From NCBI RefSeq assembly GCF_003019035.1, contig NZ_CP027447.1: a stretch of 64,000 nt of DNA; one strand, written 5' to 3'. This document shows, in pieces, positions 11,524 through 48,380 of this stretch. The notes beneath the pieces are model-generated. The model had not been told where the DNA came from. It saw nothing but the letters and a program-made list of their open reading frames with translations, and did no database searches. A program made the position numbers and the translations under genes. Within the stretch, counting starts at the first letter, position 1; each line of letters opens with the position of its first letter. This DNA is from Escherichia coli (GTDB lineage Bacteria; Pseudomonadota; Gammaproteobacteria; Enterobacterales; Enterobacteriaceae).

Positions 11524-11600
11524 GCGCCCTTAGCTCAGTTGGATAGAGCAACGACCTTCTAAGTCGTGGGCCGCAGGTTCGAATCCTGCAGGGCGCGCCA
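11524..11600 (+). tRNA. argU: tRNA-Arg (anticodon UCU)
   Basis: 77-nt sequence GCGCCCTTAGCTCAGTTGGATAGAGCAACGACCTTCTAAGTCGTGGGCCGCAGGTTCGAATCCTGCAGGGCGCGCCA with TCT anticodon loop and encoded CCA end. Confidence 0.95.
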
Positions 11601-13479: not shown

Positions 13480-16452
13480 TTACCAGTGCACTCCAATGGT
13501 GAGAAACGCATTGTTGCGCTCTCCGTTACGTTGATTAATCGCCTTAAAGGTATGTTGATACTCGACGCCGAGACTGACTTTGTGCGGCCAGGCGTCGTAG
13601 TGCGTCTCGCCGGTCCAGATATTCCAGCGGACCCCGACACCGCCAAGCTGCGCGCCCTGAGTGCCTTTATCACGATAGCCGTTGTCCTGAACGTGAGCGT
13701 AAGGCTCAATAGTCTGTCCGTTAGCTACCTTCTGATGCCAGCTGACGCGATAATCTGCCGTCCACGCCTGAATATCCTGGCGGATATATTGCGCTGCATC
13801 GAGGTACAGGTTTTGGGCAAACCAGCCTGAACCGTTCGGGTGCCATTCGTCGCTGTATTTGCCGCCATTAAAGAATGAGGCGCTGGCGCGCAGCATGGTA
13901 TCGGATGCGCCATTTTGCCCGTTCAGCGGCAACTGCTGTTCGACGGCGAGGAAAAAGATCTGATCGCGCAGCGGCTTCCAGCGCAGACCGGTGCCGGACA
14001 TCGGATTTTTCACCGGCATCATCACCCCGTTTTCTCCAGTATCGGCAAATACACGGCTGTAAACCGAGAGCAGGTCGCCTTCCAGCAGCATATTGCGTCC
14101 GATGCGATACTCGGCTTCCAGTTGCCCGTAGCTACGATAGCTTTTCCCTGGCGCTGCGCCGCCGACATTATTGTTAGCGGTACTCATTGCGCCGGAACGC
14201 AAGCCGATAGAAGAATCGAAACTGAACGTCCAGCGGCGACCGACCTCCTCATGCAGACGGCGGAAATTGAAGCGTTGCTGATTTTGCTCTGGGGTCAGTG
14301 GGGTTATCAGCGCCTGATTATCAATGTCATCAATCACCAGCCGGGCGTAGTGCTGCGTCGCAGGCATGTCATCCAGACGCTGGTTCACGTAGGCCAGTTG
14401 TCGGATAAGTGCCGGATCGTCCGGTAGCCCTTTATGCGCCTGTTCGAGCATTTCCCGCGACTGTGCGATATCACCGCTATCCCACAAGGCGTAACCGAGC
14501 GCTGCCTGGGTGTTGCTATTATTCGGTTCCAGTTCCAGCGCGGCGCGCAAATCACTCACCGCCGCCGGGACATTATGACGTTGGCGATAAATTGTCGCCC
14601 GCGCAACGTAAGCGTTGGCAGAAGGCGCAATATTGATTGAGCGCGTGAGATCGTTCAGTGCGAGTTCCGGCTGACCAGGAATGTAACGTTGCGCATGCAG
14701 CCACCAGTAGAGGGCATTGTTTCCCAGCCCACGTTGTTCTGCCTGCTGAAGCCAGCGATCGCGAGCCGCACCATTTCCTGCCGCCTGGGCGGTATTGGCA
14801 GCAGCAAGCAGATCCTCATTGCTCATGTCGTGAAGACTGATTTTCTGCCAGGCCGCCAGTGCGGTGGCGTAGTCCTCAACCTGATACGCCTGATAGGCTA
14901 CCGCACGATGTTGCCAGGCGTTCGGTTGTCGTTGTTCGGCCTGAAGCCATGCATACAACGCCACACCGGGTAGCGTGTCCCGATAACACTTTGCCAGACG
15001 GTTCCAGGCGGCGGCATCGTAGGAAGGCGACATATCGCCCAGCAAGCGAACTATTGCCGGGCAATTATCTGCAATACCCGGCAACTGACTTTGCCACTGA
15101 CGTTGCTCCGCCAGCGGTAAAGGTTTCGATAAAATCGCCACCTTCGCCGGCGTTGCCAGGTAAGGATGACTTTCCAGCAGAGACGCCAGTCGCGCCATTA
15201 ACGTCTGGCTGACACGCGCATCGCCCTGGAAAGGATAGCGTTGCAGCAATAAATCGGCAGCTTCGCGTGACTGCTCGTTCTGCATCAGTTGCCAGGTCAG
15301 TTGATCCAGGCGGGTAAGATTTGCCGGTTCTTGCTGATACAGCAATCGTGCCAGACGCAGAGCTTCAGCCTTGTTATGGGTCGCTACGCTAACGGTATAA
15401 CGCTCCTCAAGCATTTCATTGGCGGGGAGGGTGGCGAGCAGTTTTTGCGCTGCGTCGTACTGACCTTCTTTTAACAGCACCGGTAGCGTCGCGCCAACAA
15501 CATACTGGCGGTTATCGGCAAACTGTACCGTATAATTCGCCAACGCCTGAACGGGGTTGACGCTGTATTTAGATAACAGATAGAGCCAACTTTTCTCTTG
15601 TGCGTCCGTGGTAAACAGCGGCTTATTTTCAATGAGATAATGCTGGAGGCGCGCTTTTTCGCCACGATAAGCCAGCGCGGTCGCGTAAGTAATATATGAC
15701 TGAGGATCGGTGAAGATCCCCTGTGATTGCAGCGCCAGGATCCGATCATCCAGCTGCGCGGCAAGAAGCACGTCAAACCACTGACGGCGTTCTGCCGCGC
15801 TTAATGTGTTCTGCTGGCGTGCTTCATTATATAGCGTATCTGCCTGGGACCATTGTTTCAGGTAGATTGCGCGTTGCAGCAGATCGGTTCGCAACGTTTT
15901 TCCTTCCGGCGATGCAGCAAACGTCGCATCGTTTAGTTGCGCTCTGGCGACAGGTAATTGTGCCAGCCGCAGGGCATTCTGCCCGACTTCACTGCGACAA
16001 CGCAGGGTCGGCGCAGCGTCGCACGCTTTTTGCTGGGCAAGCAGTTCTTCAACAGTCGTAACGCTTTTCACTTCAACTGGAATAGCCGCCAGACTGCGCT
16101 CAAGTCGGGCATCTCCTGGGTGACGTTTCAGTTGATCCTCAAGCAACAGCCGCGCCCGGTCATCATGACCAAAATGGCGATAGGCTTCCGCAAGGTATAA
16201 AGTCAGCGGAATATTATCCGGCACCTGCTGGTGTATATATTCAAATTCGCGGATGGCGGTTGCTTCGTCGTTATTTTTCTGTGCCTTCAGCGCCTTGTCG
16301 AGACGGGGATAAATAACGAAATGGCGATAATCGCTCAGCCCCAGCTCTTCTGCGCTGGTGCCGATATTGTCTGCGAGTGCGCTGGTACTCAATAAAGACG
16401 TCAGCAGTAAACCAGACCATCCGATGACGCGATTAAGGTTATTCTCCTTCAT
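13480..16452 (-). CDS. nfrA: bacteriophage N4 adsorption protein A (outer-membrane TPR protein)
   Basis: 990-aa product from MKENNLNRVIGWSG... with signal peptide; start trimmed from the 997-aa track ORF. Confidence 0.9.
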   Translation of the reverse strand: MKENNLNRVIGWSGLLLTSLLSTSALADNIGTSAEELGLSDYRHFVIYPRLDKALKAQKNNDEATAIREFEYIHQQVPDNIPLTLYLAEAYRHFGHDDRARLLLEDQLKRHPGDARLERSLAAIPVEVKSVTTVEELLAQQKACDAAPTLRCRSEVGQNALRLAQLPVARAQLNDATFAASPEGKTLRTDLLQRAIYLKQWSQADTLYNEARQQNTLSAAERRQWFDVLLAAQLDDRILALQSQGIFTDPQSYITYATALAYRGEKARLQHYLIENKPLFTTDAQEKSWLYLLSKYSVNPVQALANYTVQFADNRQYVVGATLPVLLKEGQYDAAQKLLATLPANEMLEERYTVSVATHNKAEALRLARLLYQQEPANLTRLDQLTWQLMQNEQSREAADLLLQRYPFQGDARVSQTLMARLASLLESHPYLATPAKVAILSKPLPLAEQRQWQSQLPGIADNCPAIVRLLGDMSPSYDAAAWNRLAKCYRDTLPGVALYAWLQAEQRQPNAWQHRAVAYQAYQVEDYATALAAWQKISLHDMSNEDLLAAANTAQAAGNGAARDRWLQQAEQRGLGNNALYWWLHAQRYIPGQPELALNDLTRSINIAPSANAYVARATIYRQRHNVPAAVSDLRAALELEPNNSNTQAALGYALWDSGDIAQSREMLEQAHKGLPDDPALIRQLAYVNQRLDDMPATQHYARLVIDDIDNQALITPLTPEQNQQRFNFRRLHEEVGRRWTFSFDSSIGLRSGAMSTANNNVGGAAPGKSYRSYGQLEAEYRIGRNMLLEGDLLSVYSRVFADTGENGVMMPVKNPMSGTGLRWKPLRDQIFFLAVEQQLPLNGQNGASDTMLRASASFFNGGKYSDEWHPNGSGWFAQNLYLDAAQYIRQDIQAWTADYRVSWHQKVANGQTIEPYAHVQDNGYRDKGTQGAQLGGVGVRWNIWTGETHYDAWPHKVSLGVEYQHTFKAINQRNGERNNAFLTIGVHW

Positions 16453-18676
16453 TTTCGGACTCCAGTTGCGCAACCTTTTCTGTGTTTAAACCTGCTTTGA
16501 GTAATAGTGATTGCATCGAAACTTGTAATTCGCGTTGAATTGTCAGAACGCGATCCAACGTTTCCTGGCTGATAACGCCTTCGGTGACCAAAAACTTGCC
16601 GAGCGGCAGAGAACTGCGTTCATGGCGCAATAACAACACGTTAATTGCTGAACGATTAATATGACCGAGCGTGGTCAGTATTTCGGCGAACAGGAACTGA
16701 TGCGGCACATATTGCCGCCAGATTTCACCGGCCTGCTGTTCCGTGAGCCACTGATGCTGAACCGCATTGTACAACATTGCCCGCGGATCGTGACCGCGTC
16801 GGCGCGCATACCAGTGGCGTAACCCCGTGACAATTTGTCCCCGCAGAACAATGACGTAACGCACTTTGCGTCCGACTTTACGCGTCAGGGCCGCCAGCGA
16901 AACCGGGTCAATACCATCTTCACTGCCGACAATTAACTCATCATTTTCCAGACGCAGCGGCAGCACTGCATAATGCAGCGCCACGGAGGCCGGCATCTCG
17001 GCAATCAGTGATGAAGGGATCTGCCAGGCGTCGATCGACTCCCACGCCACGCCGTTTTGCTCTGCCAGCGCCTGTGCCAGCTGCTCGGCGCTAATCAGCC
17101 CCTGCATCAGCATTGAACCGCCAAGGCGTAGACCTTCGACGCGATTACGCAGTGCTGTATCGAGTTGTTCTTCAGTGATGACCTGATTTTCCAGCAGAAT
17201 TTGACCTAACGGGCGCAACGAGCGGGTATCGCCAGTCACGCTGGGGAAGTCATGCGTTGTTTTATCCCACGCCACGCGACGTGGATCGCCGTGTTGAAGT
17301 ACCTGTTTTAACGCGCGCCAGTTGGCCATGAAGTTAATCAGGTTGCCCCAGAAAAGACGCAGGACAGATAGTAGCCCCTGCGTCAGGCCGTAGTAGCCAG
17401 TGACGAAAATCACCCGCTGCACGATGCGGTTAACCATCAAGCCAAAGTTTAGCCACAGCAGGGTCATTAACCATGCGCTGCCGCTGAAAATAGAAAGGAA
17501 ATGCCAGGCATCGGGCCACAAACTTTCATACGCCAGTAACAGCAAAAGCTGGATCATCACCAGCATCGCGAGGAAGCTGACAAAGTTACTGATTGCCCCT
17601 TTGCGGTCGCGCCAGAGAAAGTAGTTCAGCGTCAGGCTGGAGGTCCATTTGTGGGTTTTAAAGCCCTGGAAAACAATGCCGATGATCCAGCGAGATTTTT
17701 GTCGAACCGCCGTCGAAAAGGTATCGGGGAAATATTCGCGCACGCAGATCATGTTTGACGTCCGCGCGTGCTGTAAAAATTTACGCTGCTCGCGTTCTTT
17801 GGCTTCGTCCACCACCGGAAAACGGACAAAAATTTCCGTCATACCTTTTTCTTTCAGGCGGAAACCAATGTCGTAATCTTCAGTAAGACTCTGCACGTCG
17901 AAAGCAATACCGTCACCGTCAGCTAACAGTGCGGTCACGGCGCGGCGGCTGAAACAAGTACCGACACCTGCGCTGGGCACCTGTCCGGCGAGGGCTTCAC
18001 GCACCGGAACATCTTTGCCATGCAGTTCTGAAAACTCATCAATGTAAGTCATGCTGGTGAAGTGCGTCCATTCGCGTTCGAATGGGTATACCGGGATCTG
18101 AATCAGATCTTTACGCTCGACCAGATAGTTGAACAGACGCAATTCCATCGGTGAAATTACGTCTTCGGCGTCATGCAGAATAAAACCAGCAAAAGCGAAA
18201 TTGGCGCTACGCTCAAACTGGGTGATGGCGTCCAGCACGTTGTTCAGGCAGTCGGCTTTGCTGGTGGGGCCAGGACGCGCGCAGACTACCTTATGCACGT
18301 TTGGGAAGCGAGCGCACACTTCGTCAACATCACGCTGAGTATCGGGGTCGTTGGGGTAGGTGCCAACAAAGATATGATAGTTTTCATAGTCGAGCGTGGT
18401 CGCCGCCAGCTCGGCCATATTGCCGATGACGCCCGTTTCATTCCACGCCGGAACCATAATCGCTAACGGTTTTTCATCTGGTTTATACAGTTCGCGGTAA
18501 CTCATTCGCGGGTAGCGGCGATAAACACTCAACTTGCGTTTAATGCGGCGTACCCAGTAGACGACATCAATAAAAAAATCGTCCAGCCCGCTGATGAACA
18601 TGATGACCGCTAACGTTATCGCGATTACTTTTAAGCCATATAGCCAGGTTGCAAAAACATCAAGAAGCCAGTCCAC
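16439..18676 (-). CDS. nfrB: bacteriophage N4 adsorption protein B (inner-membrane glycosyltransferase)
   Basis: 745-aa ORF, membrane N-terminus plus GT2-like domain; overlaps the nfrA start (operon). Confidence 0.92.
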   Translation of the reverse strand: MDWLLDVFATWLYGLKVIAITLAVIMFISGLDDFFIDVVYWVRRIKRKLSVYRRYPRMSYRELYKPDEKPLAIMVPAWNETGVIGNMAELAATTLDYENYHIFVGTYPNDPDTQRDVDEVCARFPNVHKVVCARPGPTSKADCLNNVLDAITQFERSANFAFAGFILHDAEDVISPMELRLFNYLVERKDLIQIPVYPFEREWTHFTSMTYIDEFSELHGKDVPVREALAGQVPSAGVGTCFSRRAVTALLADGDGIAFDVQSLTEDYDIGFRLKEKGMTEIFVRFPVVDEAKEREQRKFLQHARTSNMICVREYFPDTFSTAVRQKSRWIIGIVFQGFKTHKWTSSLTLNYFLWRDRKGAISNFVSFLAMLVMIQLLLLLAYESLWPDAWHFLSIFSGSAWLMTLLWLNFGLMVNRIVQRVIFVTGYYGLTQGLLSVLRLFWGNLINFMANWRALKQVLQHGDPRRVAWDKTTHDFPSVTGDTRSLRPLGQILLENQVITEEQLDTALRNRVEGLRLGGSMLMQGLISAEQLAQALAEQNGVAWESIDAWQIPSSLIAEMPASVALHYAVLPLRLENDELIVGSEDGIDPVSLAALTRKVGRKVRYVIVLRGQIVTGLRHWYARRRGHDPRAMLYNAVQHQWLTEQQAGEIWRQYVPHQFLFAEILTTLGHINRSAINVLLLRHERSSLPLGKFLVTEGVISQETLDRVLTIQRELQVSMQSLLLKAGLNTEKVAQLESENEGE

Positions 18677-18855: not shown

Positions 18856-20160
18856 GGGTAACGCAGGGAAAGATTACGAAAGCCCGCTCCCCGCAAGGAC
18901 TGACGCCAGATAGTTTCTGTCCATGGCTGCTTTTCGCATCTTACGTCTTAACCCTGCCTTGAATACCTTATCATTCGTCAAAATATTAATAGCGATGTGC
19001 CGTATCCCTGAAAATAATTCTGCTGCATTTCCTCTTCTTATTTTGCAGTCGTCTTCATTCATTACCACGTCCAGACGCCAGTGCAGCTTATTCTCCACGT
19101 GCCAGTGGTTTCGGATTGCTGTGGCGAACTTCTCTGCGGTTAAATCAGCAGAACTGATATAATATCTGACCGTCATTTCGGGCTCTTTCTTTTGTTCTGC
19201 TATTATTGACCGAAAGGAGACTGCCACGCATAATTTCTTCAGACCTTTCCATTCAAACGTGAAATCAATAAGTTCATCAGGGACATCGCAAACAATGTGA
19301 AGACGGATTTCTTCTCTGCCGTGACTCTTTTCACTCATTGCGTAACTGTCATGCTCTGGATTATTTAATTCTTTCAGCGGAAATTTTTCCTCGAAGGCTT
19401 TATTTAGCCGCCCCTGGTTTCCTTTTACAGCGAATAAATAATCACCTCCCTGTTTTTGTATCTTCTCTGCAATATCTTTCTGGCAACCCATCGCATCAGT
19501 TGTGATGATTTTTCCTTTAATATCCAGCATGTTAAGAAGTTCTTGGATAGCTGTAATCTCATTGGATTTCTCATCCGTCCTGATCTGTCCGATGACCAGA
19601 CTATGCATTGTTGAGAACGCACTAATGACATGAATCGCTCCCTTGCGGCGACTCTTGTCATAAGAGTGCCGGAGCGTTTTTCCATCAATTGCAATGACGC
19701 CTTTATCATCTGAAGAATGGCAGTCACGCATCCAGTTAATAAAGCACTCGTGAAATTTTGCAGGACTGATACAGGATACAACTCTGGCAATGGTATCGTG
19801 AACAGGAATACCATTTTCAAAATCACCATATTGCTTCAAAAAATCGAGATGTGTTTCCCCAAAATCCTCTATATCTTCCCAGCCTTCTGCACCAGAAATA
19901 ACGGCACAAATAGTCAACAGTAGAATATCCGACAATTTATGTTCCACTTTCCAGGCTTGTCTGTACTCGGGAATAACAGAAATATGTTCTATCAATTTTT
20001 TAAGTACCATTTTGTTCTCCTTAATTATGTAAGGAGTATTTGATCATGTATAAGCAATAAAAAACAGCTTCAGGTAATGAGGAATATCTCAATTTTTAAA
20101 CATAAAATGCGAATTATTTAGTACAAAAAAGCAGCGTTACGTGATCTTTCCCTGTGTAAT
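18856..20160 (-). mobile_element. H-repeat / ISAs1-family insertion sequence (about 1.3 kb)
   Basis: Contains the 378-aa H-repeat-associated transposase; imperfect terminal inverted repeats centred on CAGGGAAAGAT (18861-18878 versus reverse complement of 20139-20156, 15/17 identical); boundaries approximate to about 5 bp. Confidence 0.75.
18874..20010 (-). CDS. ISAs1-family (H-repeat-associated, YhhI-like) transposase
   Basis: 378-aa [53 protein letters not shown]...; near-identical to the recalled E. coli H-rpt protein family. Confidence 0.9.
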
Positions 20161-20834
20161 CCCCCAGCTAAATCATGAACTTTTTGAGCCATTTTACTTA
20201 ATTCAGGGCAGGCTCCTAAACCTAATGGATCTGTGAAGCAACACGGATTCAGCACATAACCATAAGTGTTTAGTCCACCCAATACACCCAGGGGGTCACT
20301 CACCAGATACATCCCGGTCTCCGGCTCGTAGTACCGGAACCGGTTATAGCACAGCCCTGACTCCGCATCCCGCCACTGCCCCGCATACAGCAGACCGGGG
20401 TCCGCTTCTGCGTCTCGCTCCCCGCGCGGGTCCGGGTAGTCCCTGTCTGCGCTGACGCTGAGTGCCAGCCCCCACAGGCTGGTCTGCTCCGCACGCCACA
20501 CCACGTTACCCTGACTGTTAAAGAGCATCACCGGGCGGCCTGTCAGGTCGCTTACCGCATGGCTGGTCCGCGTCACCCACTGCGGGGCCACGGACGGGTG
20601 CGGCTGCCGTACCCGGCTGAACTGCTGGCTTATCAGCTCAAAGCCGTTAAACACCAGGTACCGCACACTGTACAGTTTATCATCGCGGTATTCCCGGATT
20701 TCCGCAATAGTGTCGCCGTCCCACAGATATGTGATGCGGAGGGCTTTTTGTTTGCAGCGTTTCTCTGTCCGTCTGCCACTGGCGTCGTGGCAGTATTCCC
20801 ACTGCTCACCCCGGGCGCTGCGGTAGCCGATCAC
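20118..20834 (-). pseudogene. orphan rhs C-terminal fragment (last about 206 aa of Rhs core plus a truncated alternative tip)
   Basis: Homologous to residues about 1260-1470 of the upstream Rhs through the PxxxxDPxGL core end (DPLGL); no upstream ORF or canonical start; only about 19 native residues follow DPLGL before the reading frame runs into the IS terminal repeat. Confidence 0.7.
20217..20834. repeat. direct repeat copy 1 (rhs core 3' end, orphan copy)
   Basis: About 620 bp, high-identity copy of 21694-22311 visible in both nucleotide and protein alignment. Confidence 0.75.
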
Positions 20835-20863
20835 GGCTGTCGTGGCGGAACTTTATCTCTTTT

Positions 20864-21253
20864 TTATTTAATCCAGTAAGCTAATCTCTCACCAATCTTC
20901 AAATTTTCTCTTTTGTAATAAAATACAGTATCAAAGTTAATGGATATTTTTTTCGCAATAACTTTGAATTTCAATTCAAATTCCGAATAAAACTCTAATA
21001 CTAACATTTCACGAGCATTGTCAGTGCAACTTGATAGCTTAATAAACTCCTCATTAAGATCGCATGACCAGTCCATAACACCGCTAATATAGCATGGCGT
21101 GTCTATTATTATTTCCAGTGTGTGATAGTAAGAAAGGTCATCACTCCCGGAAATAATCAAGCGATTATGTTCATAAAGAAAAACTGAAAAATCCAACCAA
21201 CTTTCTTTCCAATTATGGTGCTTTATATCATTAATTATGTTTTGCTCACTCAT
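20864..21253 (-). CDS. candidate cognate immunity protein for the Rhs C-terminal toxin
   Basis: 129-aa AT-rich ORF; its ATG overlaps the rhs TGA stop in a 4-bp ATGA overlap; positional analogy to rhsI genes; no family recognised from sequence. Confidence 0.6.
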   Translation of the reverse strand: MSEQNIINDIKHHNWKESWLDFSVFLYEHNRLIISGSDDLSYYHTLEIIIDTPCYISGVMDWSCDLNEEFIKLSSCTDNAREMLVLEFYSEFELKFKVIAKKISINFDTVFYYKRENLKIGERLAYWIK

Positions 21254-24200
21254 GGAATAGTTCCTGTAGGCAATGGTATATGAGTATCATTTGCAGCTCC
21301 TGGATTATAATTCGGACTTTTAGTTTTCAAATCAGATGTATGATGCCAACTGCCATCAGGAGAACCATACTCCCAACCATAGCCTTGATTAGTCGCAGGA
21401 TTTGTTCCACTTTGGCTTCTACCAATCCTATATATGGGGCCATTGGCAGAATTACTCCCTGCTGGAGCAGTAGGGTTTACATCATGAGCCCTTACTTCAT
21501 ATTTATAATTTCCGACGGTGAATTTTTCTTTAAATTTTATAGGGTAGTTATGCCCAGACAAGCCTTGCCGATGTAAAGCATAATTTAACACATCCTGCGG
21601 TGAGGTATTTTTAATTGCTTGATGCGCTTGTGCTGCTGTCATACCTTGAGAACGATTGTATTTATACCAATCATACATCACAGGACATATAGCTAATCCC
21701 AAAGGATCAACATACCCCAGCGGATTAGGCACATACCGGTAAGTCTGCTCACCCCCCAGCAACCCCAGTGGATCACTCACCAGGTACATCCCGGTTTCCG
21801 GCTCGTAATACCGGAACCGGTTATAGCACAGCCCCGATTCCGCATCCTGCCACTGCCCCGCATACAGCAGGCCGGGGTCGGCTTCCGGGTCCAGCTCCCC
21901 GCGCGGGTCCGGGTAGCCGGTGTCTGCGGGCAGGCTGAGTGCCAGCCCCCACAGGCTGGTCTGCCCCGGTCGCCAGACGGTTTTACCTTCACTGTTAAAG
22001 AGCACCAGCGGACGGCCCGTCAGGTCGCTCACCGCATGATTCGTTCGCGTCACCCACTGCGGGGCCACGGACGGATGCGGCTGCCGTACCCGGCTGAACT
22101 GCTGACTCAGCAGCTCAAAGCCGTTAAACACCAGGTGCCGTACGCTGTACAGTTTATCATCCCGGTATTCCCGCATTTCCGCAATACTGTCGCCGTCCCA
22201 CAGATACGTAAAACGGATTTTCTTCCGGTCGCAGCGTTTTTCCGTCCGCCTGCCGCTGGCGTCGTGGCGGTATTCCCACTGCTCACCCTGTGCGCTGCAA
22301 TACCCGGTCAGCTGGTCCCGGCTGTCCCACCGGAACCGCTCTGTTTCCGGGCGGTAGCCGTCACGGTGTCTGGTGCGGCTGACCATCCGGCCTGCGGCGT
22401 CATAGCTGTAGTCTGTGTTTCCGGTCTGTTTCAGCCGGTGGCCGCGCTGATACATGTCAGTATCCACGCTTATCCGGTGCCTGCCCGCCGACTGCGCCTT
22501 CAGGTAGCCACAACTGTCATAGCCATAGGACTCATCGCCTTCGCCATAGCCCAGCCCGGTGCCTGAGGCTGTCACCGCCGTGACCTGGCCGTTCCGGTCC
22601 AGCCGGTACTCCCGCCGTGTTTCCCGTCCGTAGTCTTCCCGGCTGGTGACAGCCGACATATTGCCCGCGCTGTCGTAACGGTACTCCCGCACCAGTGAGG
22701 GGAGCAGTCCGCCCCATGTGGCTTCCGCCGGGAAAAGTCCGGCGCGCTGGCTGGTAAGCTGACCGGCTGCATTCCAGCCCTGCTCACAGGCAAAACCCCG
22801 GTTACTGTGCCGGAGCACTTCACGTCCTGCCTCATCACGGCTGAACGTCAGCGTCTCATCCCCCGGCAGGATAACCTCCGTCAGTTCTCCGGCGGCGTTG
22901 TAGCGGTAGGTGGTTTTCAGCAGGGATTCACCGGGGTGTCTGTCGCGTTCATCTTCCGGTGGCAGGATACAGCGGATGACGGTGTGTTCATCGGGGTGGT
23001 GGTATTCAATGGCCCGTCGGCCCTGAGTGGTGACATTCACCCGCCCGCGTTCGTCATAGCCGGTGCGCTGTGATGTACCGTCCGGGCTGAAGATACCCGT
23101 CAGCCTGCCGGATTTGTCATAGGCATACTGCGTTTTGCCTTCCGGCGAGATGACTTCTGCCAGGCGGCCTGCGGCGTCCCGGCTGTAGAGGATAGTTTCC
23201 TCCAGGCCGTTAACCCTGGCGGTACAAAGGCCATCGGCGTCATAGCGGTAACGCCAGACCACGCCGCCCCAGTCACGCTCTTCCGTCACCCGTCCACAGT
23301 TGTCCAGAATATAACGGTATGACTCGCCCTGCGGATTGATGACTTCTGTCAGTTGCAGCGTGTCTTTATCGTAGCGGTACTGCCAGCGGTGGCCTTCACC
23401 GTCCGTTCGCGCCACCGGCAAATCGAACGGGCCGTATTCCATCGTCCAGACAACGCCGTTGCCGTCCGTCCAGGCCAGCAGGTTGCCGTGGCGGTCATAG
23501 CGAAATCCTTCCGCGCCGGTGCCAGTGCGTTCAAGGCCGCTCAGTTTATGGTGCTGCTGCCACCGTAACCGCACTGACTGACCGCCGGGGCCGCGCATCT
23601 TCACCGGCAGGTCGTGACCGCTGTATTCGGTGTGGTGTTCACGGCCCATCACGTCGGTGAGTGTTTCCGGCCGGTTGTGGTGGTCGTACTCTATGCCCAG
23701 ACGCCGTTCATCCTGGCGGAATATCCCCGACAGCAGCCCCTGCGGCGTGTACGCCAGCCGGGTCTCTTCGCCCTGTGGCGACACCAGACTTACCGGCAGG
23801 CCGCGTTCATCACACTGCTGCGTCCACATCTGCCCGGCAGGGTCGGTGATGTTGCTGAGCAGGCCGCGCTCATCATAGCAGTACTGCCACTCCGCACCGT
23901 CTGCCGCCGTGTAACGGCTTAACTGACCGTGTGCGGCGTTGTATTCAAACTTCTCCACCCGCCCGGCAGGGGAGTGGCGGGCCAGCAGGTGATGGAATTC
24001 ATCCCATTCATACATGGTGGTGCTGCCGTCCGGCGCTGCTTCCCGCAGAATATTGCCGTCAGGATCATAGTAATAACGGTGAATGCCCTTGCCGTCCGTC
24101 ACGGTGGTGCAGCCGTCACCATAGTCCAGCGTGGCGTTGTAATAGCCCTCCGCCCCGGTGACGGTCACGCACCGGCCCTGTGCATCGTAGGTGAAACGGC

Positions 24201-26103
24201 TCCACGTCTGGTCGTTATCGGACCAGCGGATGATCCGGTCCGCAGCGTCGTACTCATAAAACAGGTGGTAGTCCAGCCGCGCATCCGCTTCTGTCAGCCG
24301 CCCCCGCGCATCCTGTTCGTAGGTCGCCAGCATCTGTATGCCGTTATCCGTACGGTGAATGGCTTTCAGGTAGCCGCTGGCATGGTACGTCAGTTTAAGC
24401 CGGATCCCGTCGGTGTGACTGACACCCATGATGCGGTACTGGCTGTCGCGCTCAAACGTGATGCGGTTGCTGGCGGTGTCGCTCATCCCGCCCAGCATGT
24501 ACATCCGGTCTGCGGGGCTGTGTGCCAGACGGTCATCGCAGGTATCGTCAGTCACCGGGTGGCGCAGGCGCATTCCCGGAAAGGCGTCATAAAAGAAGCG
24601 GCTGCTCAGTGCATCACGGTCGAACAGCTCCAGGTAATCGTCGCGGCGGCGCAGAATGTACTGGGCGTGATACGGGTTAACCGCCGTATCACTGTCACCG
24701 TCGAAGGCAAATCTCAGCGTGGTTCCCTGGCTGATGATATCCACCCGGTTTCCCTGTTCACGCACCCAGGCGTATTCGCTCCAGGAGTCGCTCCAGCCCA
24801 CGCCCGTCAGACCATGCAGCGGCAGTACAGAACTGTGGAAACGGGTGAAGGAGAGGGGGAGTGTCTGGCCCAGCGTAAAGTCGGTACGTTCGTCGCAGTA
24901 TGCGCCGGTTACCGGATCGACAGGATCTGTTACCCATCTGATGACTTTATTGGCAATACTTTTTAACGACTTACCTGTTTTCCCCAGCAACGCGCCGAGC
25001 TTTGCCCCCAGCAGCTTCCCGCTTTTCCCCAGCAGGTTTCCCAGTTTGCCGAGTTTCGCCAGATTCCCCAGTTTTCCCAGCAGTCCCGCGGGCGGCAGAA
25101 GATAGCTGGCTATCGTTATTCCCCCCAGGATCATTCTCTGCCACGGCGGGAACTCCGGCTGGATATCCAGATAGGTCACCTGTTCACCGCCAATAAAGAC
25201 GTCCGGCGAACCTTCCACGATTGCCGCGCTGCACTCCAGTTTGTCCCCTTTGCGTGCGGCAGTCTGATTGTTGATAAAGACGTTGCTGCTGCCCTGGGCT
25301 ATCCTCGGTGGTTTGTTCTCCTTGTCGCAGAGCGCCGTGTCCTCACCGGCTTCCGGGAAATCCACGTCTTTTTTGATTTCGCCACGCCCGCCCACCATGG
25401 TGGCAAACTCCATTAATACCGGACCGGCGGGAAACAGAAGCGATGCGCCGGCGCTGACGCGATCCATAATACCGGCATTGCTGTCCGTCAGGGTGATAAC
25501 AGCGTTCCCCCAGGCCTTCGCCAGTGGTACTGCTTTTTCCGCTGCCGATTCAAGCAGGTCAGTGGCAATATCACCCCATGAGGGTTCCCCCTGTGGTGGA
25601 GAGGGTATTGCTTCAGTCAGGGGAGGAGGGGGAAGGGTGACGGCGGCCCTGGCAGCGGGCTTTCCGTTAATGTTTACATTTTTAGAACCAGTATTGATGG
25701 CCCCGTCCGTGTCACAAAAACTGTTTATCCATGATTCAAGCTGGTTCTGTTTCTCCTCCACATAATCACTCGCCTTATAGCTGGCATACATCAGCGCAGG
25801 CACCAGAACCAGCGCATAAGGGCCGGTGGCACAGGCGGCCATAATCAGGCAACCTTCTGCGATGGTCACTATCGCCCCCAGCACGGCCCCTGCCAGCGCC
25901 CCCAAAAAACTCTTGTGCTGAATTTCATCGCCCAGCCTGGCTGCGGGGGGGCCAGACTTTTTTGATGCCAACATCTGTGCAATGGCTTTGTCGTTGGCTG
26001 CCCGTTTCATCTGGCTGGCGACCATCGCCTGCTGTGACAGCATTCGCATTGCCAGCGTACCGCCTGCGGTCGCTCCCTGTGGCCCGCCTGGTCCTTCACT
26101 CAT
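21250..26103 (-). CDS. rhs: prePAAR/PAAR-domain Rhs-family polymorphic toxin (T6SS effector) with variable C-terminal toxin tip
   Basis: 1617-aa ORF: N-terminal AARLGDEIQH (prePAAR-like AARxxDxxxH), hydrophobic helices, PAAR-like segment (ARKGDKLECSAAIVEGSPDVFIGG), long YD/Rhs repeat region, core terminating at DPLGL, then a 147-aa low-GC tip. Confidence 0.9.
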   Translation of the reverse strand: MSEGPGGPQGATAGGTLAMRMLSQQAMVASQMKRAANDKAIAQMLASKKSGPPAARLGDEIQHKSFLGALAGAVLGAIVTIAEGCLIMAACATGPYALVLVPALMYASYKASDYVEEKQNQLESWINSFCDTDGAINTGSKNVNINGKPAARAAVTLPPPPLTEAIPSPPQGEPSWGDIATDLLESAAEKAVPLAKAWGNAVITLTDSNAGIMDRVSAGASLLFPAGPVLMEFATMVGGRGEIKKDVDFPEAGEDTALCDKENKPPRIAQGSSNVFINNQTAARKGDKLECSAAIVEGSPDVFIGGEQVTYLDIQPEFPPWQRMILGGITIASYLLPPAGLLGKLGNLAKLGKLGNLLGKSGKLLGAKLGALLGKTGKSLKSIANKVIRWVTDPVDPVTGAYCDERTDFTLGQTLPLSFTRFHSSVLPLHGLTGVGWSDSWSEYAWVREQGNRVDIISQGTTLRFAFDGDSDTAVNPYHAQYILRRRDDYLELFDRDALSSRFFYDAFPGMRLRHPVTDDTCDDRLAHSPADRMYMLGGMSDTASNRITFERDSQYRIMGVSHTDGIRLKLTYHASGYLKAIHRTDNGIQMLATYEQDARGRLTEADARLDYHLFYEYDAADRIIRWSDNDQTWSRFTYDAQGRCVTVTGAEGYYNATLDYGDGCTTVTDGKGIHRYYYDPDGNILREAAPDGSTTMYEWDEFHHLLARHSPAGRVEKFEYNAAHGQLSRYTAADGAEWQYCYDERGLLSNITDPAGQMWTQQCDERGLPVSLVSPQGEETRLAYTPQGLLSGIFRQDERRLGIEYDHHNRPETLTDVMGREHHTEYSGHDLPVKMRGPGGQSVRLRWQQHHKLSGLERTGTGAEGFRYDRHGNLLAWTDGNGVVWTMEYGPFDLPVARTDGEGHRWQYRYDKDTLQLTEVINPQGESYRYILDNCGRVTEERDWGGVVWRYRYDADGLCTARVNGLEETILYSRDAAGRLAEVISPEGKTQYAYDKSGRLTGIFSPDGTSQRTGYDERGRVNVTTQGRRAIEYHHPDEHTVIRCILPPEDERDRHPGESLLKTTYRYNAAGELTEVILPGDETLTFSRDEAGREVLRHSNRGFACEQGWNAAGQLTSQRAGLFPAEATWGGLLPSLVREYRYDSAGNMSAVTSREDYGRETRREYRLDRNGQVTAVTASGTGLGYGEGDESYGYDSCGYLKAQSAGRHRISVDTDMYQRGHRLKQTGNTDYSYDAAGRMVSRTRHRDGYRPETERFRWDSRDQLTGYCSAQGEQWEYRHDASGRRTEKRCDRKKIRFTYLWDGDSIAEMREYRDDKLYSVRHLVFNGFELLSQQFSRVRQPHPSVAPQWVTRTNHAVSDLTGRPLVLFNSEGKTVWRPGQTSLWGLALSLPADTGYPDPRGELDPEADPGLLYAGQWQDAESGLCYNRFRYYEPETGMYLVSDPLGLLGGEQTYRYVPNPLGYVDPLGLAICPVMYDWYKYNRSQGMTAAQAHQAIKNTSPQDVLNYALHRQGLSGHNYPIKFKEKFTVGNYKYEVRAHDVNPTAPAGSNSANGPIYRIGRSQSGTNPATNQGYGWEYGSPDGSWHHTSDLKTKSPNYNPGAANDTHIPLPTGTIP
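21253..21693 (-). other. Rhs C-terminal toxin domain (147 aa after DPLGL); candidate WHH/HNH-type nuclease
   Basis: Abrupt drop in GC content after the DPLGL junction; motif GSWHHTSD...NYNPGAAN...THIP near the C-terminus resembles the His-His...Asn...His arrangement of HNH/EndoVII-fold toxin domains. Confidence 0.45.
21694..22311. repeat. direct repeat copy 2 (rhs core 3' end, main gene)
   Basis: Homologous to 20217-20834; substrate for homologous recombination that would swap toxin tips. Confidence 0.75.
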
Positions 26104-26122: not shown

Positions 26123-26584
26123 TCAGCGCGGCTGGTCCTTTTGGATGTCATTCTCCGGTGGCAACGGGGTGAAGCTCTTTATCACCTCCAGCAGCATCGT
26201 CTTTTGACTGTTCTTCAGGGATAAGGAGGTGCTGAAAGTGAAGGTCAGCAGCGTATCTCCACGCCGCTGGAATACGGCTATCTGGCTAATCCGCCCCTGA
26301 TTCCCTTCATCTTCCGGACCGTTCCAGGAATAATCCAGCAGCCAGGCCGGGGCCTCTGCCAGAGTGATTTCCCGGCAGGCATGTTCGGTGTACCCATCAA
26401 GTTTGCCCTGGTACAGCGCCAGCGTTTCCTGGTACAGCTCTGGTGTCAGGGTTCCCTGTGGAACGGCTTCGCGGGTAATGACCAGGTTGATGCCACTGTT
26501 ATCTGTGGACACCAGGACCTGCATTGACTGATCCTGCCATTGAGACGGCAGTTGAATGTGGCCTTCATTAAAAGTGAACTGCAT
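26123..26584 (-). CDS. DUF1795 / Eag-family effector-associated chaperone
   Basis: 153-aa ORF between vgrG and the prePAAR-Rhs gene, tightly spaced; size and position typical of EagR-type chaperones. Confidence 0.75.
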   Translation of the reverse strand: MQFTFNEGHIQLPSQWQDQSMQVLVSTDNSGINLVITREAVPQGTLTPELYQETLALYQGKLDGYTEHACREITLAEAPAWLLDYSWNGPEDEGNQGRISQIAVFQRRGDTLLTFTFSTSLSLKNSQKTMLLEVIKSFTPLPPENDIQKDQPR

Positions 26585-26611
26585 AAAATACTCCCTGTTA
26601 ATCTGAGTGAA

Positions 26612-28513
26612 TCAGTTGATGAAAACAGAACCGCCCACGATGGTGATGCCATCCTTCGACAGCCTGATTACCGTCGATTCCCCGACCTGTAGCTGTATGC
26701 CATCCGGCGTCAGCGCAATTTTGCTTTCCTCCACGGCCAGCAAAATTTCCTTAATCGCCGTATAAGCCTGTATACCGTCGCCTTCGCCACCATTGTTTAC
26801 AGCGTCAACATGCACCGAACCGGCAATCGTGCCTCTGTCCTGAAAGACATCCTCAGATAAAGACCCTTTCAGTACTCCGGTGATCTTGTGGCCTTTTTCC
26901 ACCGTAAGAAGGCGGTTACCTTCCTGGATCGTGACCGTCTGGTCATTTTTTACGGTTTCGCGGTGATCGTGTTTTACGGTGGTGGTACGGTCGTTGAGCA
27001 CTTCGGTATCCATGTTCTTCTGCGCGTGGATGTAGACCTGTTCTCTCCCTGTCGCATCATCAAACTTCAGCTCATTAAATCCGCTGCCCATGTACGTTTT
27101 GGAGCGGATGGTCATCTGCGTCTTTGTTCCCGGCAGGCTGCCGGGGGTGCGGTTTTCCTGGTGGTAGGTGCGCCCCATAATGATCGGCTGGTCCGGATCG
27201 CCGTTGAGGAAGTCTACAATCACTTCCTGACCCACACGCGGTATCGCCAGGTGGCCAAAACCGGTGCCTGCCCACGCCTGTGCCACACGGATCCAGCACG
27301 AACTGTCTTGGTCTGCCGGGTTATAACGGTCCCAGTTGAACTTCACCCGCACGCGACCATGTTCGTCGCAGAAGATTTCCTCGCCTGCCGGTCCTGTCAC
27401 GACAGCGCTCTGCGGGCCGTCGACCAGCGGTTTCAGCAACGGCTGTGGTCGCCATGTTCTGTCTGCCGGGATCACCGCAAAATGGTTCTCCAGCGCCGTC
27501 CCCGCTCCCTGCCGTCCTGGCACCGCCTGTGGCTGTTCGCCGTGCAGTTCACTTGCCACCACCTGCCATTCCCGGTTCAGGTTCGCCTGCGGATGCCCCG
27601 TCAGCACAATTCGTCGTCCCGGCCATATCTCCGGCGAGCGACTCATTCCCCGCGCGGTTTCTGCATTGTTTCGCCAGCCGTCCATCTGCCAGCGGGCAAA
27701 GTTCTGCCCGTGGGCACCCTTGAAACGTCCGGGGTAGTCATACACTTCATACTGCGTGCGCTGGTAGTCCTGGTGCTGGCCTTCCTGTTCAAAACGTCCG
27801 GCCCAGCCGGGGCGTTTAAAGGTGTAGTCTTTGGTCACCACGGAAGAAGGGCGGATTTGTGCGCTGTAGCGGAACTGGCTGATGCAGAGGGTGCTCACCT
27901 CGGTACGGGTGTTCGGGTTCCATGGGATTTCAAAAGATTCGGGCAGATGGCGGACTGTGTCGCACAGCACCAGGCTCTGGTCGGTACTTTTGTAAGCATG
28001 CTCCTCATAAAAGAAGATGCCTTCCTCCGCCGCCATCCGGCACAGGAAATCGTAATCAGTCTCACCGTACTGGACACAAAACTCACGGGAAGGATGCGGC
28101 TCGCTGAACAGCGGACTCCATTCGGTCACCCCGTTTTCCTGCAACATCGTGCCGAGGATGCTTTTGATGTCCTCGTTCTGGAAGATACGGAAGTTCTGGC
28201 GCAGACCGGCACGCCACAGCGGCGGGTGCACCTTCATGCTGTACAGCATCTGGTTTTTGTCGTTCTCCCCCAGTTCAAACCAGGTCACCACGCCTTTCAC
28301 CCGGCGCTGTACTTCATCGCCCTGCCATATCGTCAGGTAGGCCATTTTGTCCAGCACCTGCGCAAATTCAAGGGAGAGAAACTGCTGGCTGACCAGGGAG
28401 AGATCGAGGGAAAAGAGCGAAGAGAGTGACTGGTTCAGATGAAAGGAAACCACCGCAAAAGCATCCGGCGGCAGGCCGTCCACTTCCAGTGTGAAACGTA
28501 ATCCGGTTGACAT
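26612..28513 (-). CDS. vgrG: type VI secretion spike protein VgrG
   Basis: 633-aa ORF starting MSTGLRFTLEVDGLPPDAF... with gp27/gp5-like regions and a C-terminal beta-helix-like segment; canonical VgrG N-terminus. Confidence 0.9.
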   Translation of the reverse strand: MSTGLRFTLEVDGLPPDAFAVVSFHLNQSLSSLFSLDLSLVSQQFLSLEFAQVLDKMAYLTIWQGDEVQRRVKGVVTWFELGENDKNQMLYSMKVHPPLWRAGLRQNFRIFQNEDIKSILGTMLQENGVTEWSPLFSEPHPSREFCVQYGETDYDFLCRMAAEEGIFFYEEHAYKSTDQSLVLCDTVRHLPESFEIPWNPNTRTEVSTLCISQFRYSAQIRPSSVVTKDYTFKRPGWAGRFEQEGQHQDYQRTQYEVYDYPGRFKGAHGQNFARWQMDGWRNNAETARGMSRSPEIWPGRRIVLTGHPQANLNREWQVVASELHGEQPQAVPGRQGAGTALENHFAVIPADRTWRPQPLLKPLVDGPQSAVVTGPAGEEIFCDEHGRVRVKFNWDRYNPADQDSSCWIRVAQAWAGTGFGHLAIPRVGQEVIVDFLNGDPDQPIIMGRTYHQENRTPGSLPGTKTQMTIRSKTYMGSGFNELKFDDATGREQVYIHAQKNMDTEVLNDRTTTVKHDHRETVKNDQTVTIQEGNRLLTVEKGHKITGVLKGSLSEDVFQDRGTIAGSVHVDAVNNGGEGDGIQAYTAIKEILLAVEESKIALTPDGIQLQVGESTVIRLSKDGITIVGGSVFIN

Positions 28514-29249
28514 AGCAACCTCCAGTAAAATGAATAATGATCCGTACCGTACAACTGCGGATAATGTGATAAGCGGGACGACTTCAGACGTTATTAGGGA
28601 AGGAACAGAAAATGCTATGGTTATGTGAGAATTTTGTTTAAATATTACTTTACAGAAACGGGTGTCTGTTCAGTCAAAAAAATAATCACAAGCTCAACCT
28701 CTTGTTTCTTGGCGTTATTCAGGACAGGTACGCATATCACAACGAGTAACAAAAACGCAAAGTTAAACCAATATTCATAATATATTTTTATTCACAGCAA
28801 TAAATAATCCAATTAACATTATTAAAATGAATGATTGCATAAGAAATATATGCTACCGCTCCACCCTGATAACATGATCTGCACATTGCACATCTTAACG
28901 TTGTTAAATACTGGCTCAATAGTGGATATTTTAAATTAGGAATTTATCAAATTCACTTGATAAATAGATTGAGTGAATAATATAACAATTAATGATGATT
29001 AATCGCGATTAAATTATTCATTGCTTTATATGATAGATGGCTTGTTTATAACGATGAAAATTTAGAAAGGGCATTGTGATCTACAATTGGAAGAAACACA
29101 GATTTAACTAAGTTTCATATACAAACATCTCGTGAAACTTTGAAAAATAAAAGCCTTCGATATTTCATATGTTTAATAAGTTTTTCTCTAATTTGTTGAT
29201 CAACAATACCAGGAGGTGATGCACCACGCCCTGAATTTGAACTTAATAA

Positions 29250-30698
29250 TCACTCTCTCTCCGGCAGCATAATCACAAACCTTGACCCCCGCGCATCTGA
29301 CGTTACTGCAACCGTGCCTTTATGCGCGACAACAATTGATTTCACTATCGCCAGCCCAATGCCGCTACCTTCGCCTTTTCGCTGGCGGGAAGGATCAACG
29401 CGGTAGAAACGGTCAAACAATCGCGGTAAGTGTTCGGGCGCAATGGGCGTACCGGGGTTTTCGACGGAAACTTGCACCTGGTGATCGACCGTCTGGCAGC
29501 GCACAACAATTGCCTCTCCGGGTGGCGTATAACGCAGGGCGTTCGAAAGCAGGTTGCTTAACGCCCGACGCAACATCAGCGGATCGCCCGCAACCTGACA
29601 CTCGTCACCAACAAACCGCAACTCCACGCCGCGATCTTCCGCTAACGCCTCGAAAAAATCGAACACTTTGCCGACTTCATCCGCCAGGTTGAGCATTTTC
29701 TTTTCGGGGATTAACTGGTTGTTATCGGCCTGAGCGAGAAACAGCATATCGCTGACCATTTTCGCCATTCGAGTCAGCTCTTCGAGATTAGAGTAGAGCA
29801 CATCTTCCAGCTCCTTCTGACTGCGCGACTGGCTGAGGGCGATTTCCGTTTGCGTTATGAGATTCGTAATCGGCGTGCGAATTTCGTGAGCGATATCCGC
29901 TGAGAAATTGGACTGGCGGGTAAAGACATCCTCGATACGCTCGATCATATGGTTGAACGACAGCACCAGTTGTTCGAGTTCAATGGGCACGGTCTGTGGA
30001 TCGAGGCGAACGTCGAGATCTTTCGAGGTAATGTTCTGGATTTGACGGCTGACGCTGCGAATTGGCGCGTGGCCTTTATGTACCGCCAGCAGCACGATAA
30101 AGACGATCAGGATGCTGATGATCGATGCGGTCATAATAAGTTTATTCATCAAATCATTTATGTAATGAAGATGAAAATCGATCGAAAGCGCGATGTAGAG
30201 CGTATAAATCGGTTTGCCGTCCACCAACGGGCCAACCGGCAAGTTAATCATCCGCCAGTTGCTGTGTTCCATATGCCCGTGACCGTGGCCTGGCATCATA
30301 ATCGTCGGGCCGGAAAGGAGATACACCTCGCCACCCTGAGCGTCTTTATCGGGTATGGCGTCACGCGTAAACTCGCGGATATCCGGCGCACCGGGGGAGT
30401 GATACACCGTTTTGCCGTGGCTATCTGCCAGGGAAATCAACACGTTGGAATAACCACTGACGATATCTTCCAGCGTCATTAAGCGTCGGGCTTGCGTCTC
30501 GTCAGGATGATTAAGTACCCGTTCAAGGGTGGCGCTAATTTCTTTTAAATCATTAATATCCTGCTCGGCAAAATGCACTTTCACTGAGTGGATCATGATC
30601 CATGCAAAGGCGAAAAACGCCGCGATGGTGGCCAGGCTGATAAAAAAGGTCAGACGGGTTGCCAGCGAAAACGGGCGCTGAAATGGCTTACTGACCAT
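29250..30698 (-). CDS. cusS: copper/silver sensor histidine kinase CusS
   Basis: [19 protein letters not shown]... with HisKA/HATPase regions; overlaps the cusR stop. Confidence 0.93.
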
Positions 30699-31371
30699 CC
30701 GGCACCTCAAGCATATAGCCCACGCCGCGCACGGTCTGAATCAGCTTCGGCTCAAAGTCGTTGTCGATTTTGCCGCGTAGCCGCTTCACCGCCACATCAA
30801 TGGCGTTAGTGTCGCTGTCGAAATTCATGTCCCACACCTGCGAGGCGATAAGCGAGCGGGGCAGCACTTCACCCTGATGGCGGAGGAAAAACTCCAGCAA
30901 AGTAAATTCTTTACTGGTCAACGTGATGCGCGTGCCGCTACGGGTGACTTTGCGGCTGACGAGATCGACCATCAGATCGGCAACCTGAAACTGACTTTCG
31001 ATAATCACCGCCGCCCCGCGCCGCAGTAGAGTGCGCACCCGCGCCAGCAGTTCAGCAAAAGCGAACGGCTTAACCAGATAGTCATCCGCCCCCAACTCCA
31101 GCCCCTTGACGCGATGTTCAATGGTGCCAAGCGCGGTAAGCAACAGAATCGGCATCCCCTTATTGGCGGAACGCAACATGCGCACGATATCCCAGCCGTT
31201 CACGTCCGGCAGCATAATATCGAGGATTATCAGATCATAATCACCGGTCATCGCCAGATGGTAGCCATTCAGCCCGTTGTCGGCCAAATCGACCACAAAA
31301 CCGGCTTCGGTTAACCCTTTGGTCAAGTATTCTCCGGTTTTCTTTTCATCTTCGACAATCAACAGTTTCAT
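30688..31371 (-). CDS. cusR: copper/silver response regulator CusR (OmpR family)
   Basis: 227-aa [23 protein letters not shown]...; receiver plus winged-helix domain. Confidence 0.95.
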
Positions 31372-43181: not shown

Positions 43182-43623
43182 TTATGTTGGCGTTTTCTAT
43201 TCAGTATAGAAGTGGGAGCGACTGGGCGAGATGCGGAAGTTCTGGAATATTTCTTTTTTTGGTGATGGTGAACTGATTGTGAGTGAAGCAATTTAGCTAC
43301 TTTTTCAATGTGGCAAGTTATGGCACAGCTGGCTGGTGGCGAAGAATTTTGACGATTGAGGCATGCAGAAAAAACGGGCTCAGCTTCAGTTGATCAAATG
43401 GGGAGTGAGAAGTCCGAAACAGGATTCACTGTATAAATAAACAGCTATTTTGCTGAGGAAGCGTAAGATAACGGCGGGTGCCTGAAGCTTTCCGGTTTCA
43501 GGTTAACTCTGAGGTCTGGAAAGATGAAGCCCCAGGACGATATTTCTATCAACCCTGGGGCTGCCACTCCAAACCCGAACAATTTGGATGGTAGTCCCTT
43601 CTTCGCATGGAGGCAATATAAAC

Positions 43624-43776
43624 ATGCTGACGAAATATGCCCTTGTGGCAGTCATAGTGCTGTGTTTAACGGTGCTGGGATTTACGCTTCTGGTCGGCGA
43701 CTCGCTGTGTGAGTTTACGGTGAAGGAACGTAATATTGAGTTTAAGGCTGTTCTCGCTTACGAACCGAAGAAGTAG
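43624..43776 (+). CDS. hokE: Hok-family type I toxin HokE
   Basis: 50-aa product [50 protein letters not shown]; an overlapping upstream frame (43524..43712) is consistent with a mok-like leader ORF. Confidence 0.85.
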
Positions 43777-44555: not shown

Positions 44556-44655
44556 GCCTGATGCGCTACGCTTATCAGGCCTACGTGGTCCTGCAATATA
44601 TTGAATTGGCAAGATTTTTGTAGGCCGGATAAGGCGTTCACGCCGCATCCGGCGT
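44556..44655. repeat. REP/BIME element (two inverted REP units) between entD and fepA
   Basis: gcctgatgcgctacgcttatcaggcctac and gtaggccggataaggcgttcacgccgcatccggc, canonical REP palindromes. Confidence 0.8.
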
Positions 44656-46933: not shown

Positions 46934-47089
46934 TGTTTTATTCCTGCATTTTTGCCACGAATTGCAACTGTCGGGCATGGTCGTCATCAATACGACGCAC
47001 CCCGCTACCGCGAAAACCTTTGATCCTGAAAGACACGCAGTGCAGTTGGTTAATTAATGTCCGCGCTTCCCACGGCGCGCCATTACGCT

Positions 47090-47125
47090 ATTGCAAATGC
47101 AAATAGTTATCAATAATATTATCAA
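47090..47125. promoter_or_regulatory. Fur-box-like AT-rich operator in the fepA-fes divergent promoter region
   Basis: aatagttatcaataatattatc resembles the GATAATGATAATCATTATC consensus; sits between divergent iron-uptake genes. Confidence 0.5.
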
Positions 47126-47175
47126 TATATTTCTGCAATCAATAAAAAATTGCACAGTAAACATGGGGTTATGGT

Positions 47176-48378: not shown

Positions 48379-48380
48379 AT

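Follow-up and report, generated by a model that had tools for sequence, protein, structure and literature searches.

The vgrG gene at 26612..28513 (minus strand) very probably encodes the spike protein of an 'orphan' (accessory) vgrG island that belongs to the E. coli T6SS-2 and goes by the names vgrG1 and VgrGO1. The gene lies in the window, the 64-kb stretch of E. coli chromosome, in K-12 orientation, that was analysed here as a whole. The locus is already known, as it is a member of an island type that has been described and in part experimentally characterised. Its ORF starts with ATG and runs uninterrupted to give a product of 633 aa, a canonical T6SS spike protein.

The match of this protein to the TIGR03361 (TssI/VgrG) model scores 625.1 bits against a cut-off of 186.35, and TIGR01646 is also matched, with 442 bits. 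Because residues 7-517 align to positions 1-512 of the 513 in TIGR03361, the N-terminus is complete, as an earlier note on this DNA had stated. Pfam searches give Phage_GPD at residues 29-327, Phage_base_V at 384-450 and Gp5_trimer_C at 467-560, and we see the gp27-like hub, the gp5 OB-fold and the C-terminal β-helix of a VgrG all present. Past residue 560 there is no further Pfam or NCBIfam domain. Residues 561-633 are identical to PDB entry 3WIT ('Putative Vgr protein') at 71 of 73 positions (97%), which indicates that the tail is a part of the spike and not an effector domain. We take 3WIT to be the C-terminal β-helical domain of E. coli O157 VgrG1, a structure that is reportedly the work of Uchida et al. 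With a tail that matches 3WIT and no toxin or enzymatic domain, the protein does not belong among the evolved (effector-fused) forms; it is a real, intact, non-evolved VgrG without a toxin extension, and the earlier claim that no C-terminal effector extension is present was correct. That note had also called the protein short. This does not hold, as 633 aa is the usual length of a core VgrG, and P. aeruginosa VgrG1, which among PDB entries gives the best full-length match, has 643 aa.

The description of the gene as stand-alone can be kept only in part. There are no tss core genes nearby, but the VgrG does not stand alone, because vgrG heads a chaperone-effector-immunity cassette. On the minus strand, the island reads vgrG, eagR, rhs, a 129-aa ORF, a displaced Rhs fragment and an ISAs1 transposase, and all cassette ORFs in the window are intact. 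The order vgrG, eagR, PAAR-Rhs, immunity gene is also annotated in the E. coli genomes SCU-301, 027_SK3 and 93_0495, and in four NCBI assemblies. Neither the published island type nor the place of vgrG as first gene of such a cassette figured in the earlier note.

The second gene, eagR (26123..26584, minus strand, 153 aa), begins 28 nt downstream of vgrG and sits 19 nt upstream of rhs. Its product is an Eag chaperone of the DUF1795/DcrB family, predicted to serve the transmembrane region at the Rhs N-terminus, with a match to Pfam PF08786 (E=1.4e-27, 96.8 bits against a cut-off of 27.2) and low similarity to the solved Eag proteins (E=1.1e-5 to EagT6/PA0094 in the PDB). The SCU-301 counterpart is annotated as 'DcrB-related protein'. 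The DUF1795/DcrB fold is thus found directly beside a prePAAR effector, as is expected of an Eag chaperone, and EagR is predicted, by analogy with characterised Eag proteins, to bind the transmembrane helices at the N-terminus of the Rhs protein.

The effector gene rhs (21250..26103, minus strand) encodes a class I prePAAR effector of 1617 aa. Its domains follow in the order prePAAR, transmembrane region, PAAR, DUF6531, Rhs/YD cage, PxxxxDPxGL motif and Ntox30. Pfam finds RHS_repeat in 10 stretches (249.7 bits), PAAR_motif (54.5 bits), DUF6531 and the Ntox30 toxin domain (41.8 bits, cut-off 25), and the prePAAR_I profile matches the N-terminal 201 aa with 26.9 bits (cut-off 25). The prePAAR motif itself, AARLGDEIQH (consensus AARxxDxxxH), is at aa 54, and PLGYVDPLGL, the PxxxxDPxGL motif, is at aa 1461. 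The only hydrophobic windows are at aa ~64-105, plus one borderline window at aa 324. The protein therefore has the features that define a class I prePAAR Rhs, namely the motif, a single transmembrane region and a PAAR domain, with the YD cage leading into a toxin domain. An identical Rhs protein is found on at least 24 public contigs or assemblies.

The start of the 129-aa ORF (20864..21253, minus strand) overlaps the rhs stop codon by 4 nt. A gene of 129 aa is called at this position in four NCBI assemblies, and a Pfam search with its product gave no match. Judged by its position, we consider it a candidate immunity gene, rhsI. Next comes a displaced (orphan) fragment of the Rhs core end, the C-terminal tip of which is truncated (20118..20834, minus strand; TIGR03696 Rhs_assc_core, E=1e-19). 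Positions 20287-20821 within it are ~86% identical to 21764-22298 within rhs, and only ~30 residues follow its DPLGL motif; the fragment is what is left of an earlier toxin tip. The distal end of the island is formed by an ISAs1-family (H-repeat) transposase gene (18874..20010, minus strand; NF033564 transpos_ISAs1, E=1.4e-124), which has a counterpart at the matching position in SCU-301, 027_SK3 and 93_0495. At the proximal end, 736 bp of AT-richer intergenic sequence (28514..29249) separate the vgrG start from the cusS stop. This is presumed to be the promoter region of the cassette; a scan upstream of vgrG gave 3 promoter-like sites where 3.5 were expected from shuffled sequences, which is not above chance.

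The cassette vgrG-eagR-rhs-rhsI is inserted in the E. coli backbone between nfrB (16439..18676, minus strand; Pfam glycosyltransferase and MshEN domains) and cusS (29250..30710, minus strand; Pfam CusS, HAMP, HisKA and HATPase_c), both named according to the SCU-301 annotation. Before the island, the window carries lpxH, ppiB, cysS, folD, sfm, fimZ, tRNA-Arg, envY, ybcH, nfrA and nfrB, and past it cusSR, cusCFBA, pheP and then the ent/fep genes. The collinear SCU-301 annotation outside the island lists backbone genes only, with lpxH to nfrB before it and cusS to entA past it.

SCU-301 is the closest complete genome, with a handful of SNPs outside repeat regions: identity to the window is 99.93% over 1-48799 and 99.994% over 46988-64000. 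In the island region, four NCBI assemblies match at 99.99% or better. The differences from SCU-301 fall mostly in 19129-21899 and are mainly small, often homopolymer-associated indels in repeated ISAs1/rhs sequence, which are best read as errors in the SCU-301 assembly. The frameshifts that these indels cause in the SCU-301 ISAs1, Rhs fragment and rhs genes were considered as true decay of the island. This was rejected because the intact proteins of the window recur exactly in at least 24 assemblies and the indels, which are confined to repeats, are mostly small and often homopolymer-associated.

The earlier note had stated that no hcp, tssB/C or other T6SS structural gene occurs in the 64 kb, and that function would depend on a T6SS elsewhere. 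Searching the window by tblastn with core proteins (17 from the T6SS-2 of SCU-301 and 14 from the T6SS-1 of EAEC 042) gave nothing at E<=0.01, and hidden hcp or tss genes of these types were thereby rejected. A tss cluster just past the window edges, which the note had also thought excluded, was likewise rejected, as the genes that border this stretch in SCU-301 are purK/purE at one end and entH/cstA at the other. About 335 kb away from the island, at the aspV tRNA, SCU-301 carries a T6SS-2 cluster. Its genes include hcp, tssB/C/E/F/G, tagH, tssJ/K/L/H, vasI, tssA, tssM, vasL and a second hcp, and the cluster also has its own vgrG and a non-PAAR Rhs gene. The presence of T6SS-2 in the genome from which the window derives, and with it the dependence on a distant machinery, is supported by this near-identical genome.

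The VgrG protein itself points to the same system. Positions 26982-28523 of the window (the first ~510 codons of vgrG and 10 nt upstream) are 91.5% identical at the nucleotide level to the main-cluster vgrG of SCU-301, and the T6SS-1 VgrGs of EAEC 042 and ZH063 share only ~24% aa identity with the window protein. The homology of the VgrG base is hence with the T6SS-2 main-cluster VgrG, not with the T6SS-1 VgrGs, which indicates that this conserved base fits T6SS-2. The last ~123 codons (26612-26981) have no similarity to the SCU-301 main-cluster vgrG. In short, the protein is laid out as a T6SS-2-type gp27/gp5 base (aa 1-~510) with an island-specific C-terminal β-helix tail (aa ~511-633), and this divergent tail appears, by sequence comparison, to be the cargo-specific part. 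We also considered whether the island VgrG might be the sole VgrG of ST648-type genomes, the T6SS-2 cluster of which is without its own vgrG-rhs; this was rejected, as there are two vgrG places per genome.

Published work on homologues suggests how the parts would act together. VgrG is predicted to trimerise into a gp27/gp5-like spike that sits at the tip of the Hcp tube and is exported by the T6SS, with its N-terminal ~510 residues fitting the baseplate and Hcp tube of T6SS-2, the genes for which are at aspV, about 335 kb away. The island-specific β-helix tail would carry the adjacent Rhs protein by its PAAR domain. EagR would bind and shield the N-terminal transmembrane helices of Rhs until loading, and the prePAAR motif would complete the PAAR fold, in line with the Eag chaperone and prePAAR mechanism described in PMC7773334. 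Contraction of the sheath would then drive the VgrG-PAAR-Rhs complex into a neighbouring bacterium; there the C-terminal Ntox30 toxin would be freed from the Rhs cage, and the product of the 129-aa downstream gene would shield the producing cell and its relatives. The displaced Rhs fragment and ISAs1 may be the record of an earlier replacement of the toxin tip by recombination. In its reference to Ma et al. 2017, PMC6730261 states that Rhs-CT delivery requires vgrGO1 and eagR.

A survey of 5426 complete E. coli genomes was performed, in which any megablast match was counted and overlaps were obtained by inclusion-exclusion. The module, represented by a segment comprising eagR and the vgrG 3' end (26123-26990), is found in 2297 genomes and T6SS-2 tssBC in 2279, with a union of 2863; by these any-match counts the two occur together in 1713 genomes. 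T6SS-2 tssBC is thus present in 75% of module carriers vs 18% of non-carriers, figures that are uncorrected for phylogeny. Any of three tssC types (T6SS-2, EAEC T6SS-1, ExPEC T6SS-1) is found in 3457 genomes, and the union of these with the module segment is 4023, which leaves ~566 of the 2297 module carriers (25%) with no T6SS-1 or T6SS-2 tssC sheath gene, T6SS-3 being outside these counts. The module occurs in only ~18 of the ~1178 genomes that have T6SS-1 but are without T6SS-2. O157:H7 genomes show a 98.3% match to the same segment.

Two genomes illustrate the carriers without a sheath gene, and in both the VgrG is 99.7% identical to that of the window. In 027_SK3, VgrG and EagR are intact and Rhs is truncated, and what remains at aspV is a truncated tssM-vasL-hcp stretch directly next to an ISAs1 fragment. 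In 93_0495, VgrG, EagR and Rhs are all intact. That the island is kept apparently intact in such carriers might mean that it is selected for something besides firing by a resident T6SS, which we regard as unlikely; for the window this argument is weak, because its lineage carries T6SS-2. In sheath-less carriers the cassette might serve as a store of immunity genes and toxin tips, might stand ready for a T6SS-2 that is re-acquired or arrives on a plasmid, or might matter through a function of VgrG or Rhs that involves no T6SS.

These carriers also bear on the proposal, made in the earlier note, that the island would be vestigial or immunity-only if its genome lacked a T6SS. Such a situation does occur in other E. 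coli lineages: a quarter of the carriers have no T6SS-1 or T6SS-2 tssC, 027_SK3 combines a truncated Rhs with no more than a remnant at aspV, 93_0495 retains the whole cassette without a sheath gene, and loss of T6SS-2 by deletion is documented in ST410 (PMC10711316). For the source genome of the window, it would mean that no functional T6SS is present, for example through a truncated tssH, and that the cassette persists by inertia, or that its immunity genes are useful against attackers with matching toxins. In the SCU-301 assembly, tssH does lack 1 nt, which brings in a stop at aa 631 of 919, and the main-cluster vgrG has several frameshifts; these defects may reflect true decay and not errors of assembly. 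Against this, the whole T6SS-2 gene set is present in SCU-301, and a public contig, which is not tied to an island-bearing sample, differs from the SCU-301 cluster over 22.8 kb in one tssH base only, so that the zero-mismatch remainder of the cluster is seen with an intact tssH. The repaired TssH sequence has an exact match listed in 178 blocks of a sequence collection. Because otherwise identical clusters carry an intact tssH, we see the defect as isolate-specific or an error, and a clonal frameshift is unlikely. The intact cassette ORFs of the window, with identical proteins in at least 24 assemblies, also speak against a vestigial island. That reading is accordingly unlikely for this lineage, and an accessory island served by T6SS-2 remains the preferred one.

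There is less to be said for two further readings. VgrG might be loaded onto T6SS-1, as follows from a secondary citation of Ma et al. 2017, and a preprint (10.1101/2024.03.05.583533) ascribes VgrGO1-dependent killing to T6SS1 and finds STEC T6SS2 to be without antibacterial activity in its assay. We nevertheless place VgrGO1 with T6SS-2, because of the VgrG homology (~91% nt identity to the T6SS-2 vgrG vs ~24% to T6SS-1 VgrGs) and the co-occurrence counts, with the module so rarely found in T6SS-1-only genomes. SCU-301 moreover has no T6SS-1 sheath match. Taken together, these data make loading onto T6SS-1 highly improbable. The vgrG ORF might also be a pseudogene or an artefact of assembly: assemblies are prone to error in repeated vgrG, rhs and ISAs1 sequence, and SCU-301 has many homopolymer indels at window positions 19129-21899. 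The ORF is however without interruption and matches TIGR03361 at full length, SCU-301 and dozens of ST648 genomes share its first 1523 nt with 100% identity, and a 633-aa VgrG product is annotated in many genomes. This reading is effectively refuted.

For annotation, the value of assigning the locus to a T6SS-2 accessory island is that vgrG, eagR, prePAAR-Rhs(Ntox30) and rhsI can be treated as one unit and linked to the T6SS-2 at aspV. For what is a textbook accessory effector island, reliance on a T6SS encoded at a distance is to be expected. The survey figures (75% of carriers with T6SS-2, 25% without a sheath gene, near-absence from T6SS-1-only genomes) give population-level numbers for the study of how T6SS weapons decay or are recycled.

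The closest known relatives are the vgrG1/VgrGO1-eagR-rhs islands of E. coli, with which the window shares the order vgrG, DUF1795 gene, PAAR-Rhs, immunity gene, and a VgrG of 633 aa with the 3WIT-like C-terminal 73 aa. In EDL933, vgrG1 (z0707), the DUF1795 gene (z0706) and rhsF form a vgrG island that, as here, lies outside the T6SS island, and the VgrGs of this island type resemble those of T6SS-2 (PMC7216683). The islands differ in the Rhs tip, which is Ntox30 in the window and a restriction-endonuclease-fold toxin in 93_0495, and the displaced fragments of the window are unlike those of other strains. Salmonella Rhs1-SciW and P. protegens RhsA-EagR1 (PMC7773334) share with the window the prePAAR motif, one transmembrane region, PAAR, Rhs cage and toxin, along with an adjacent eag gene and an upstream vgrG. 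At 1617 aa, the window Rhs is longer than the ~1200 aa typical of class I prePAAR Rhs proteins (PMC7773334).

VgrG1 of the P. aeruginosa H1-T6SS (PDB 4MTK/4UHV) matches window VgrG residues 13-539 with 320 bits and is of similar length, but the C-terminal tails of the two are unrelated. VgrG1/EagT6-Tse6 is likewise a non-evolved VgrG that carries an Eag-chaperoned PAAR-toxin, although Tse6 is a class II effector with two transmembrane regions and no Rhs cage, unlike the window Rhs. In the VgrG1-Tle1 pair of EAEC Sci-1 (T6SS-1), VgrG selects its own cargo via its C-terminal region, as would the window VgrG. That VgrG1 differs in having 841 aa with extra C-terminal domains, with 24% identity to the window protein, and in being encoded inside the core cluster with a separate small PAAR protein. 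K-12-type Rhs elements presumably resemble the window island in their Rhs core, displaced tips and ISAs1/H-repeat. The same features are common to the window and the Rhs elements of T6SS-less E. coli such as ST410 (PMC10711316); in such strains the island type persists without sheath genes, whereas the lineage of the window has a T6SS-2 cluster.

Across the ecoli_genomes collection of 5426 complete E. coli genomes, in which any megablast match was counted, the 5' sequence of the T6SS-2-type vgrG was found in 3691 genomes at a median of two copies, whereas T6SS-2 tssBC was found in only 2279. From this difference we see that vgrG genes outlast the T6SS-2 machine in many E. coli lineages. The vgrG-eagR module, counted as eagR plus the vgrG 3' end, is present without tssC of either T6SS-1 or T6SS-2 in approximately 566 of the same 5426 genomes.

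Strain 027_SK3 gives one example of such retention. At its aspV locus (L011 850-4870), an ISAs1 fragment directly borders a 5'-truncated tssM, after which come vasL and hcp, an arrangement in which most of T6SS-2 has been deleted, and the vgrG island between nfrB and cusS is retained despite this deletion. In the ST648-type genomes the T6SS-2 core is intact at aspV (loci L007 and L008), and remnants of IS3 and IS256 have taken the place of the vgrG-rhs module of T6SS-2 (L007 16973-19304; L008 16162-18494), directly adjoining hcp at both loci. Even without that module, each of these genomes still carries vgrG at two places. For SCU-301, a complete genome nearly identical to the window along the window's length, a single-base deletion lies in tssH at position 21047 of its T6SS-2 locus (L003), outside any homopolymer. 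In this assembly the deletion cuts TssH/ClpV at residue 631 of 919; the missing base is present in the public contig L016, whose cluster is otherwise identical.

Within the window, vgrG contains a 513-aa antisense ORF from the ORF list (26888-28429, + strand), a shadow ORF of the GC-rich vgrG that nothing supports as a gene. A stretch of ~535 bp in the displaced Rhs fragment (20287-20821) recurs as a direct repeat, ~86% identical, at the end of the rhs core (21764-22298), and this repeat is the likely substrate for recombinational replacement of the toxin tip. Sequence comparison at the cusC 3' end shows GGGG in the window (32890-32893) versus GGGGG in SCU-301 and GCA_043911185.1, altering the last CusC residues (...TALGAVGSNNF versus ...TALGGGWQQ); the difference reflects a polymorphism or else an error in sequencing.

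Rfam matches comprise the sok antitoxin RNA adjoining hokE (43476-43632, + strand), the ES036 sRNA (44577-44618, - strand) and a tRNA (11524-11597, + strand), annotated as tRNA-Arg in SCU-301. No prophage occupies this tRNA-Arg site in the window, unlike in K-12, where the site hosts prophage DLP12.
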